In this document: positions 19,582 through 22,650 of the stretch, in pieces | Layout: each line of letters starts with the position of its first letter | Numbering within the stretch: position 1 is the stretch's first letter | From: Candidatus Latescibacterota bacterium | GTDB taxonomy: Bacteria > Latescibacterota > UBA2968 | Direction: 5' to 3' | Assembly: GCA_965205975.1 (NCBI GenBank) | Contig: OZ242195.1 | Location: forward strand, 4,832,001 to 4,896,000 | Length of the DNA: 64,000 nucleotides | Position numbers and translations under genes: made by a program | The notes under the pieces: model-generated | Seen by the model: only the letters and a program-made list of their open reading frames with translations | What the model was told of the DNA's origin: nothing | The model's database searches: none

Positions 19582-20469
19582 ATGATGGATTCTATTTATG
19601 GGATTGTGCCGCCAGTGGTGACGCCGTTTCGGGAGGATGACGCACTTGATGAGGGGGCGTTTCGTGCGGAAATTCAGTATATGATTGAGACGGCAGAGGT
19701 GCATGGGGTGGCGGTGACGGGGAGTACGGGCGAGGGGCATACGCTCAGGGATGATGAGGTGAGGCAGTTGACGCAATGGGCAGTGGAGGAAGCCGATGGG
19801 CGAGTGCCTGTGATTACGGGGATTATTACGGACAGTACGAAGTCGGCAATTGAGCGGGGGAAGGCTGTGGCCGATTTGGGTCCGGTGGCGTTGCAGGTGA
19901 CGCCGGTGCATTATTTGTTTCGGCCAGATGATGATGCGATGGTCAGGCATTTTGAGGCGTTGTGTGAGGGGACGGGGTTGCCGGTGATGATTTACAATGT
20001 GGTGCCGTGGACGTATTTGTCGCCGGAGTTGTTGACGCGGATTATTGACGCGGTGGAAGGTGTGGTGGGGGTGAAGCAGAGCGCGGGAGATATGAAGTTG
20101 CTGGCTGATTTGTTGTTGATGGCAGGAGATCGAGCGCGGATTATGACTGCGGTGGATGCGTTGTTGTATCCGTCATTTGTTTTGGGTGCGCACGGTGCGA
20201 TTGCGGCGATTTTGACGGCGGTGCCCGAGTTGTGTGTGGCAGTATGGGATGCGTGTCGTGCAGGTGATCATAAAAAGGCGTTGGATTTACACGAAAAGTT
20301 GCTGCCGATTTGGAATGCGATTTTTGATGATAATTTGCCCGCAAATACCAAGTATGCGATGAAGTTGCAGGGACGCGATGGGGGTGTGCCGCGCCCGCCA
20401 ATGCCACCGTCGTCTGTCGAGCAGGAGGGGCAGATTCGGGCGGCATTGGAGAATGCTGGTGTGGTTTAA
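19582..20469 (+). CDS. DapA/NAL-family class I aldolase
   Basis: VTPF, GSTGEG, IYNVVP, GVKQS. Confidence 0.9.
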   Translation: MMDSIYGIVPPVVTPFREDDALDEGAFRAEIQYMIETAEVHGVAVTGSTGEGHTLRDDEVRQLTQWAVEEADGRVPVITGIITDSTKSAIERGKAVADLGPVALQVTPVHYLFRPDDDAMVRHFEALCEGTGLPVMIYNVVPWTYLSPELLTRIIDAVEGVVGVKQSAGDMKLLADLLLMAGDRARIMTAVDALLYPSFVLGAHGAIAAILTAVPELCVAVWDACRAGDHKKALDLHEKLLPIWNAIFDDNLPANTKYAMKLQGRDGGVPRPPMPPSSVEQEGQIRAALENAGVV

Positions 20470-20477
20470 TCAAAAGC

Positions 20478-20882
20478 CTATGACTTCAGCCTGATGGGCA
20501 TTAGCAATGCCAGCCATTCCGCATTCAGGGGTGTGCGTAAGATAATCGCTTTTCCCTGTCCTCTAAATTCCATTGTGATTTCATCGCTGTCTTCAAAGTC
20601 CAGAGCATGCAGGATTTTTTTTAGATATGCGAAGTTCACGGCGTTGCGTACGATGCTGTGTAACCAGGGTCTAAATCGGTCGGGTTTGCGAAGTTGGTGC
20701 AGATTTTCGTACACTTTGATAAATACGATTTGAACCAGGTCTTCTATGTCGTCAACCAGTCGTATGGATCGGGCAATTTGGGCATACACATATCGCGAAT
20801 AGCGTTGCACCAGAATTGCGAATGCTTTGCGGTCGCCGTCCAGAATTTGAGCGATGAGCGCGCTGTCTTCAATCTGTTCCAC
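20478..20882 (-). CDS. Chimera: ECF sigma region 2 fused to DnaN (beta-clamp)-like C-terminus; no sigma region 4; possibly an internal-deletion allele
   Basis: GDRKAFAILVQRY...IEDLVQIVFIKVYENL...FRPWLHSIVRN followed by AVNFAYLKKILHAL...WLALLMPIRL; GGAG then GTG 20882. Confidence 0.7.
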   Translation of the reverse strand: MEQIEDSALIAQILDGDRKAFAILVQRYSRYVYAQIARSIRLVDDIEDLVQIVFIKVYENLHQLRKPDRFRPWLHSIVRNAVNFAYLKKILHALDFEDSDEITMEFRGQGKAIILRTPLNAEWLALLMPIRLKS

Positions 20883-20924
20883 GAATGCTCCATGAGAAAT
20901 CAATACACGCGTGTTTTAATAAAA

Positions 20925-20950
20925 GACGAGTTTGTATCCCGAAAGTGTCG
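20925..20950 (-). promoter_or_regulatory. ECF-type promoter candidate
   Basis: CGACAC-tttcgggatacaaact(16 nt)-CGTC on the minus strand, 42 nt upstream of the sigma-like start. Confidence 0.5.
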
Positions 20951-20959
20951 CACGGATAT

Positions 20960-20989
20960 AAAAAAAACCCCGGATTGTCCGGGGCTTTT
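20960..20989 (-). terminator. Intrinsic terminator after PhyH gene
   Basis: ccccgga-ttg-tccgggg with A8 on + (U-tract on -). Confidence 0.85.
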
Positions 20990-21003: not shown

Positions 21004-21822
21004 TTAAGCATTGGGACACTTAAAGTCCAGGCCATCCATGATGACTTTTATCTGGTCGGATGGTTTGAAATAATCTGTCGCTGTATAGTTTTCGCCCAGG
21101 TCACCCATTAACCGACGGCGGCGAGGTGTCATGCGGGATAGTACTTCTTCGGGACATTTTTCGTAATCGTAAGGTCTGCACCACATTTGGCCGTACCTGA
21201 AGGTGATGCTGCGCCGCACGACGTCTGTGTGATTTGGTGCGACCGCGTGCCACATGGTATTTGGAAAGATCGCGCAGTCTCCCGCTTCGGCAATGAGTTG
21301 TATCGCGCCGGGCGGTGTTTCATTGCGGGATCCTTTGGGCATTGGGCGGCGATGGCTGCCGGGTACCAGACAGAAGTTTGCACAATTTTCGTGTGGAATA
21401 TCGGTGAGGAAGAACTGTATTTTGAAGTTTAATGGCAGACTGTCTGGCGTGACCCTAATTTGTGCCAGTGAGCGTCCAGCATCGGTGTGCCAGCCGATCA
21501 AGTTATCGGATTTGTCATTTGGATAGCGTACGTAAATTTGCGATCCCATGATCTGGATATAAGGTCCCATCAGGTCGAGGATGGTGCCAAATAAGTTGGG
21601 GTGGTCCATCAATCCGTCGATTCGACTCGTTCGGAAGAGCGTTTGGATGATGGTATAGACGCCTTTTTCGAGAACCTCGGGATATTTGGCTTCGTACTTT
21701 GCGATCACTTCGTTGGCCGCGTCGAGATAACCCGCTGCTTCGTCTTTGGGGATTACATTTTTGAGATGTAAATATCCCTGCTCCTGCCACTGTTGCCGCA
21801 TGGATTTGCTCAATTGGTTCAT
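21004..21822 (-). CDS. PhyH-like dioxygenase
   Basis: WHTD, FFLTD, VPGSH, WHAVAPN. Confidence 0.88.
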   Translation of the reverse strand: MNQLSKSMRQQWQEQGYLHLKNVIPKDEAAGYLDAANEVIAKYEAKYPEVLEKGVYTIIQTLFRTSRIDGLMDHPNLFGTILDLMGPYIQIMGSQIYVRYPNDKSDNLIGWHTDAGRSLAQIRVTPDSLPLNFKIQFFLTDIPHENCANFCLVPGSHRRPMPKGSRNETPPGAIQLIAEAGDCAIFPNTMWHAVAPNHTDVVRRSITFRYGQMWCRPYDYEKCPEEVLSRMTPRRRRLMGDLGENYTATDYFKPSDQIKVIMDGLDFKCPNA

Positions 21823-21854: not shown

Positions 21855-22199
21855 TCAGGGCGACTCTTCGTTTTGTCCGGCTTCAATGCGGACGATTTCT
21901 CCGCGTTTCAGGTCATTCAGACGATTCAGTAATTCGGGAACCAGTGGTTTCAAGTCATTGATGTCATTTGTTCTCGCAACGAGAACAACTACCGCGACAT
22001 CTGCTTCCGTGATGTTTTGCTGGTATGGGATGCTCTGGTCGGTGGTGATGAGAACATCAAACTTGTCTCTGGCCAATGCCAAAAGCTGGCCGTTTCGTAT
22101 GCTGTTCCAATCAAGATACCCAGTTGTCCATACGTCGTGGTGTTCAATCAGAGTATCCCTGAATCTCCAGGTAATGTTTTCATCGAGCAGCAGTCGCAT
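21855..22199 (-). CDS. DUF5615 PIN-like toxin
   Basis: MRLLLDENI, NGQLL, FDVLITTDQSIPYQQN. Confidence 0.8.
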   Translation of the reverse strand: MRLLLDENITWRFRDTLIEHHDVWTTGYLDWNSIRNGQLLALARDKFDVLITTDQSIPYQQNITEADVAVVVLVARTNDINDLKPLVPELLNRLNDLKRGEIVRIEAGQNEESP

Positions 22200-22650
22200 A
22201 GGCCTCTTGTTCCAAAAGTTGACGGGCCATATTGAGAGCCGCTAGAGTTTGTTCGCGGTACATTGAAGGAAATTCAAAATGAAAATCTTTCAGGCTTTGG
22301 ACTTGTATCAAGCAGTCAAAAAGGCTCTTAAGTTGGTGCCGCGTACCGACGAATACAGGTTCGCCACCCATTTCCTTGGGATCGCTGTGAAAAAGTCCAC
22401 CCGGTTTCCGGCAGGCCTCTTCGACCATTACTTTTTTTGCTCTTTCAAGAGCCGCTACCGCCTTCTTGGGGTGTACTGAGGGAAATTCGAAATGAAAATC
22501 TTTCAGATCACGTCCATAGATCAGTAAATCAAACAAGTTTTTCACCGGCACGCGGGTTCCTTTGAAAACGGGTGTGCCCCCCATGATTTCTTTGTCGCTG
22601 TGAATCACGTTGCCCTCAGTTGCGATAGAAGTTTCACTCGTTTGTGCCAT
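22180..22650 (-). CDS. DUF433 antitoxin with two tandem DUF433 domains
   Basis: EIMGGTPVFKGTRVP and EMGGEPVFVGTRH; LKDFHFEFPS twice, 71 aa apart. Confidence 0.82.
   Translation of the reverse strand: MAQTSETSIATEGNVIHSDKEIMGGTPVFKGTRVPVKNLFDLLIYGRDLKDFHFEFPSVHPKKAVAALERAKKVMVEEACRKPGGLFHSDPKEMGGEPVFVGTRHQLKSLFDCLIQVQSLKDFHFEFPSMYREQTLAALNMARQLLEQEAYATAAR

Follow-up and report, generated by a model that had tools for sequence, protein, structure and literature searches.

Background

Regulatory extensions fused to the C-terminus are known from several groups of ECF sigma factors: they are SnoaL-like in ECF41, ECF56, ECF294 and ECF295, consist of TPRs in ECF42, and are Cys-rich in ECF238. According to the available part of PMC3426412, ECF41 uses a TGTCACA-N16-CGTC promoter and drives one transcript, and the accessible portion of PMC8999054 describes inhibition by the ECF41 extension through contact with a motif in the linker. 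A connection between transcription and the replication clamp has been reported for T4 (gp55/gp33 with gp45) and for Mu (C with DnaN), where the transcription factor bears a clamp-binding motif and transcription is activated by a clamp that forms a ring of its own, loaded on DNA (available parts of PMC9690074 and PMC12867686). The clamp-binding consensus is given in the same part of PMC9690074 as QL(S/D)LF, with variation tolerated.

Here we describe a gene from a window of 64,000 nucleotides of a Candidatus Latescibacterota genome (assembly GCA_965205975.1, contig OZ242195.1, positions 4,832,001 to 4,896,000), which we read, with a probability of roughly 0.6, as a recent and most likely inactive deletion remnant of a conserved one-gene system composed of an ECF sigma factor and clamp domains II-III. 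The intact gene is referred to below as the parent. Like the extension-regulated ECF sigma factors, the parent comprises sigma2, sigma4 and an extension of ~280 aa, with a conserved linker motif; no neighbouring anti-sigma factor was seen, and the promoter ends in CGTC after a spacer of 16 bp. It differs from ECF41 in that the extension has the fold of DnaN domains II-III and is not SnoaL-like, and in that the -35 element is (C/G)GA(C/T)AC and not TGTCACA. The window allele, unlike the extension-regulated ECF sigma factors, possesses neither sigma4 nor most of the extension. With DnaN the parent shares the fold of domains II-III, on which its residues 176-451 superpose, and, for the most part, the motifs on the pocket side; but DnaN has three domains per subunit, whereas the parent is devoid of domain I and carries family-specific insertions, and the window allele retains only 53 residues of the clamp. 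As in T4 and Mu, a transcription factor bears a candidate clamp-binding motif, but in the parent the motif is internal and degenerate, and a single polypeptide unites a partial clamp with a cellular ECF sigma factor.

No sigma-clamp fusion was found in the literature searched, subscription papers being mostly beyond its scope, and the words "clamp" and "DnaN" have 0 occurrences in the main text and part of one supplement of the ECF re-classification (PMC7826278). We conclude that the parent represents a variant, undescribed so far, among the ECF sigma factors that are regulated by an extension, a fusion that we have not found in print. The window gene alone matters little, and the interest attached to it by an earlier reading made from the sequence only (hereafter, the sequence-only reading) belongs to the intact parent.

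Results and discussion

The window gene

The gene is located between a PhyH-family gene (21004-21822, minus strand; upstream) and a convergent DHDPS-family gene, with the following features:

20882-20478, minus strand: remnant ORF, GTG start, 134 aa, single frame
20640-20882, minus strand: parent-derived ECF sigma region 2, residues 1-81 (PF04542), 238/246 nt identical to the full-length relative L016
20633-20643, minus strand: deletion junction, microhomology CGCCGT(C/G)AACT, 954 bp (318 codons) lost
20478-20639, minus strand: clamp-like domain III tail and stop, last 53 residues, 144/156 nt identical to L016
20888-20891, minus strand: Shine-Dalgarno GGAG, 5 nt ahead of the GTG start; relatives similar
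20925-20950, minus strand: putative ECF promoter CGACAC-N16-CGTC, conserved in two families
20963-20989, minus strand: intrinsic-terminator-like hairpin, 12 pairs and a T tail, which ends the upstream PhyH-family gene and isolates the promoter of the remnant from it

Sigma70_r2 (PF04542) matches residues 24-82 above its cut-off (E 6.5e-12; profile positions 1-61 of 71), TIGR02937 stays below its own (36.7 vs 42.9 bits), and no sigma4 family appears among the Pfam matches of the 134-aa product. The last 53 aa have a single, weak Pfam match, DNA_pol3_beta_3 (E 0.032, 14.5 bits, cut-off 27 bits), and their best non-self tblastn match within the genome is the C-terminus of the host dnaN (E 0.14); the genome contains no further DNA copy of the remnant region. 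The identification of this tail as a piece of clamp is firm only because of the full-length relatives. In the secondary structure taken from the parent model, it corresponds to one helix and three strands and ends in LMPIRLKS. The sequence-only reading, which had seen in this gene ~80 aa of an ECF sigma2, no sigma4, a tail resembling the end of the beta clamp, a GGAG ribosome-binding site, a CGACAC-N16-CGTC promoter and a terminator upstream, is borne out in each of these respects, the absence of sigma4 being due to its deletion relative to the parent.

The full-length parent and its distribution

A search for longer relatives yielded 18 proteins, among them 15 of 452-468 aa that possess both sigma2 and sigma4 and match both ends of the query. 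The parent gene encodes 453-480 aa, with an ECF sigma2 and sigma4 followed by DnaN domains II-III. It is intact in 15/20 congeneric genomes, and a sister family has the full gene as well; across the order, 33/53 genomes match the whole extension (15 from this genus and 18 from the sister family, one of the latter with an internal stop). A wide search gave matches with sigma2, sigma4 and a long extension in 30/51 scanned representatives. Loci encoding sigma-clamp fusions are labelled Candidatus Latescibacterota or Gemmatimonadota. The only matching cluster in the ESM Atlas (score 0.98, 60 members) is labelled "hypothetical protein" and adds nothing new to the annotation.

Half-clamps also occur apart from a sigma factor: in P0053 the half-clamp stands behind an N-terminal zinc-ribbon-like segment (a weak match), and in P0064 and P0100 it precedes a SEC-C motif. 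Clamp-only representatives, 266-288 aa long, may be fragments. A split form, with the sigma factor and the half-clamp encoded separately, was not found among 80 metagenome loci.

Origin of the remnant by deletion

Aligned to L016, the remnant consists of the two arms listed above (92-97% identical), between which 954 bp are absent. An 11-bp near-repeat, CGCCGT(C/G)AACT, is present at both breakpoints in most relatives, and the window carries the base of the downstream copy; in L016 the downstream copy has one further change. Judged from these alignments, the remnant is a 954-bp in-frame deletion, at the 11-bp near-repeat, of a longer gene for an ECF sigma factor with a beta-clamp-like extension. 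This is the first of two origins put forward in the sequence-only reading, a microhomology deletion allele, and both of the signs that it named, a duplicated sequence at the breakpoints and long sigma2-sigma4-clamp proteins in related genomes, were found. It had also remarked that the tripeptide AVN fits both halves of the protein, which is explained by the presence of CGCCGT(C/G)AACT at both places in the parent.

The deletion has removed sigma4, the linker motif, the whole of domain II and one half of domain III; sigma2 itself is truncated ahead of the end of the 2.4 helix and ahead of the Q-L-R-L linker motif. With these parts gone, the remnant should have lost promoter recognition as well as the clamp pocket. 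Having no sigma4, the remnant would be unable to read a -35 element or to sustain its own promoter, and its half of domain III would not form a pocket; it retains the MPxRL edge of the pocket but not the half contributed by domain II, and binding of QLxLF peptides is therefore not expected. The product is probably inert.

The open reading frame is no sign of selection, since near-repeats inside the gene are mostly in frame (10/12, 17/20 and 8/10 overlapping 11-mers in three relatives). The remnant has only three private changes, two of them non-synonymous, and a selection test on it is therefore without power; E108G is the only non-conservative one and affects a residue invariant in 14/14 relatives. 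Compared with its relatives, the remnant still has a low pN/pS (0.08-0.30, the median of the background being 0.18), a value that mostly dates from the time before the deletion.

Assembly of the junction and spread of the allele

We compared contigs from 4 of 22 sequencing runs with the window, of which X1, X2 and X5 represent two studies. The junction is spanned without mismatch in X1 (20439-20667), X2 (20497-20667) and X5 (20620-20770), and in X1 and X2 the junction contig shares a 30-nt overlap with a common upstream contig. The deletion allele is the majority form, its contig accounting for 82/115 of the depth of the upstream contig in X1 and for 128/183 in X2. Loose contig ends in X1, X2 and X4 can be read as the full-length allele, which implies that the two alleles exist side by side, perhaps in separate strains or species. 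It might be argued that the short gene is an artefact of assembly, as full-length alleles are present in the same samples and none of the contigs listed carries 31 letters on both sides of the junction, our rule for bridging, so that the contig support falls short of proof. Against this stand the mismatch-free contigs from two studies and the 30-nt overlap, which is what a true branch would give, and we regard an artefact as most improbable. The junction is probably no misassembly, since contigs from both studies carry it. In RNA runs only 0.08-0.12 of the words were present.

With the allele in the majority in X1 and X2 and present in a second study (X5), it has evidently spread. The same junction was not found elsewhere in 41 genomes, 18 candidates of near length and 80 metagenome loci. 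These observations bear on the other origin suggested by the sequence-only reading, a working mini-protein that titrates RNA polymerase. According to such an explanation, the remnant would be a functional sigma2-only protein, which dampens the activity of other sigma factors by occupying core RNA polymerase, with the clamp piece as a mere tail. The nearly whole sigma2, the junction running from helix into helix, the intact promoter, ribosome-binding site and frame, and the dominance of the allele in X1 and X2 together with its occurrence in two studies would all agree with it. On the other hand, the junction is confined to one lineage among the genomes and loci searched, junctions of this kind fall in frame by default, the gene is lost by other routes in other lineages, and the promoter appears to depend on the very sigma factor that was deleted. 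We found no support for the mini-protein and consider it quite improbable.

The other routes of loss are diverse. G003 carries a different deletion (L002, 1486-1773, minus strand), in which ...AVQLR is joined to the final KD and stop, leaving 96 aa, the sequence of P0022. No parent gene was found in G009, G011, G017 and G018, which are 97-99% complete. A distant member, P0072, compared with P0048, has lost, in frame, the greater part of sigma4 together with the beginning of domain II, either as a true allele or through an assembly error. Such repeated independent losses fit the pattern of a dispensable gene.

The clamp-like extension of the parent

The sigma part of the parent matches PF04542 and PF08281 above cut-off and TIGR02937 with 91.4 bits, and consists of sigma2, a short linker and sigma4. 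The extension matches the clamp family TIGR00663 with E 4e-13, albeit with 49 bits, far below the 138-bit cut-off. A profile search of solved structures with the extension matched 43 sequences, all of them beta clamps. A first model of the parent, built from 23 sequences, was poor (pLDDT 64.8) and was replaced by one from 65 sequences (pLDDT 89.8, pTM 0.63). In the latter, residues 176-451 superpose on residues 123-366 of the E. coli clamp (8vat_G) with Z 23.7 and an rmsd of 2.2 A over 231 residues; Z ranges from 20.6 to 24.3 over the 50 clamp entries among the matches listed, and Foldseek is concordant. Clamp domain I is absent, the alignment beginning at about clamp residue 123, and the host retains a separate, ordinary DnaN of 391 aa.

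The motifs T(D/N)G, Y/F-x-x-Y-x-x-V-x-P, N and MP-x-R, which we take to belong to the peptide pocket between domains II and III, are conserved in the 65-row alignment; the His of TDGH is kept in only 22/65 rows. The family has invariant insertions of its own (RHP, Y-x-P, T-x-R-D-x-G-Y and W-x-F), and the segment LIEGPYV-x-YEQVIPQ is almost identical in the host DnaN and the fusion. The pTM of 0.63 suggests that the sigma and clamp parts of the model have no fixed packing. A predicted complex of the half-clamp (176-454) with sigma2 and the linker (1-104), for which no controls were folded, reached scores of 0.01 and 0.00 (mark 0.32) and is given no weight in either direction.

The linker motif and possible modes of action of the parent

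Directly behind sigma 2.4, at a fixed site in the sigma2-sigma4 linker, the parent has the motif Q-[LIVM]-x-[LFW]. A Gln at W+19, i.e. 19 residues past a conserved Trp, occurs in 35/39 rows of the family, which are kin and hence not independent counts, versus 1/60 other ECF sigma factors; the 39 rows are 41 minus 2 with a gap at the anchor, and they include P0053, which is not a sigma factor. Positions 1, 2 and 4 of QL(S/D)LF fit in most rows, and position 5 is usually E, not F; 5/39 rows look canonical (QLDLV, QLRLF, QLHLPF, QMELF and QLTLI), compared with none in the controls. In 80 loci picked by sigma4 patterns, the motif is present in 3/3 with a clamp tail, and a loose match elsewhere in 3/77 without one. 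No association was seen between position 5 of the motif and the pocket His. In the parent model, Q92-L95 form part of a continuous helix (67-99) instead of adopting the extended form expected of a docked motif.

The likeness of the linker motif to clamp-binding motifs suggests a candidate built-in anti-sigma factor that grips its own linker. By analogy with the contact between ECF41 extensions and the linker, we tentatively propose that the half-clamp of the parent may act in this way, its pocket holding the weakened clamp-binding motif of the sigma factor itself; ligands that compete for the pocket would then release the sigma factor. The conserved linker residue could instead serve a contact with RNA polymerase or DNA. 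If the motif and the pocket do form a switch, the parent would let bacteria sense, at the level of transcription, the docking site that is in heaviest use within the replisome. Natural products and toxins such as SocB are directed at this docking site, and the parent could act as a ready-made reporter for ligands of the clamp pocket.

The anti-sigma reading may be extended to a self-inducing clamp decoy, a one-gene sensor and sponge for the occupancy of the replication clamp, the window allele then representing a lineage that discarded it. The pocket of the half-clamp would grip the weak motif of the same chain and hold the sigma factor off, until the motif was displaced by clamp-targeting toxins, by natural products or by a sudden rise in repair proteins that bind clamps; the freed sigma factor would transcribe only its own gene, and translation from an internal AGGAG-ATG could yield free half-clamp, which would sequester the ligand and protect the genuine DnaN. 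We consider this elaboration unlikely.

Two further explanations share with our reading the assumption that the window copy is dead. According to the first, the parent motif either has the host DnaN as its partner or has nothing to do with clamps, and the half-clamp uses a repurposed pocket to detect an unrelated ligand. The helical motif of the model, without sigma-clamp packing, the variable His and the invariant insertions peculiar to the family point in this direction, but the motif occurs together with the clamp tail, and the host DnaN and the fusion hardly differ in LIEGPYV-x-YEQVIPQ, which makes such repurposing decidedly unlikely. According to the second, three half-clamps assemble into a DNA-tracking ring that activates the tethered sigma factor via the linker motif. 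Two-domain subunits of PCNA and T4 gp45 do close into trimers. Clamp-activated transcription through clamp-binding motifs also has its precedents in T4 gp55/gp33 and Mu C (available parts of PMC9690074 and PMC12867686). The parent, though, is missing domain I, has domain III insertions close to the prospective interface strand, and has no clamp loader beside it in 14 neighbourhoods; a ring seems to us highly unlikely.

Promoter, regulon and gene neighbourhood

The promoter of the sister family (11 sequences), GGATAC-TTT-N13-C(A/G)TC, aligns with that of the window gene, and the pattern common to both families is (C/G)GA(C/T)ACTTT-N13-C(G/A)TC. The conservation of these elements suggests that the promoter of the parent is probably autoregulatory. 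In the genome of the remnant, the strictest pattern has 3 sites, that of the remnant among them, versus 3-6 for patterns with altered spacers, and the looser GGATAC-N16-C(A/G)TC has 28 sites with no convincing target. Five genomes with an intact gene contain 22 promoter-like sites, versus 15 for a reversed control; 5 of the 22 are the promoter of the gene itself, most of the others lie inside ORFs, and no regulon beyond the gene's own promoter was identified in these genomes. An ACGCG element (20905-20915 in the window), situated some 12-17 nt past the -10 motif on its downstream side, is conserved in both families.

An AGGAG-like site followed by an in-frame ATG is present at the sigma4/clamp boundary (L016:1477-1503) in 29/29 loci, with GGGG in one and GAGGAG in some, and is kept in two different codon frames. 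We rejected it as a family-specific feature, as it is present too in 2 of the 3 control extended ECF sigma factors that could be parsed.

The parent gene is solitary in varied surroundings: in 14 neighbourhoods read by eye, no conserved neighbouring anti-sigma factor, partner or clamp loader was found. In G019 (L053:2398-3306) the DHDPS-family gene is upstream, not downstream, of the sigma gene, a local rearrangement. The window contains, at 21855-22650, a pair of genes with DUF433 (doubled) and DUF5615, presumably of the toxin-antitoxin type, which is missing at this place in the L046, L051, L053 and L076 neighbourhoods. Other ECF sigma factors of the order also have long extensions, of a non-clamp kind, in open frames of 385-827 aa (G000:C1:3286335, plus strand, and L079-L093).
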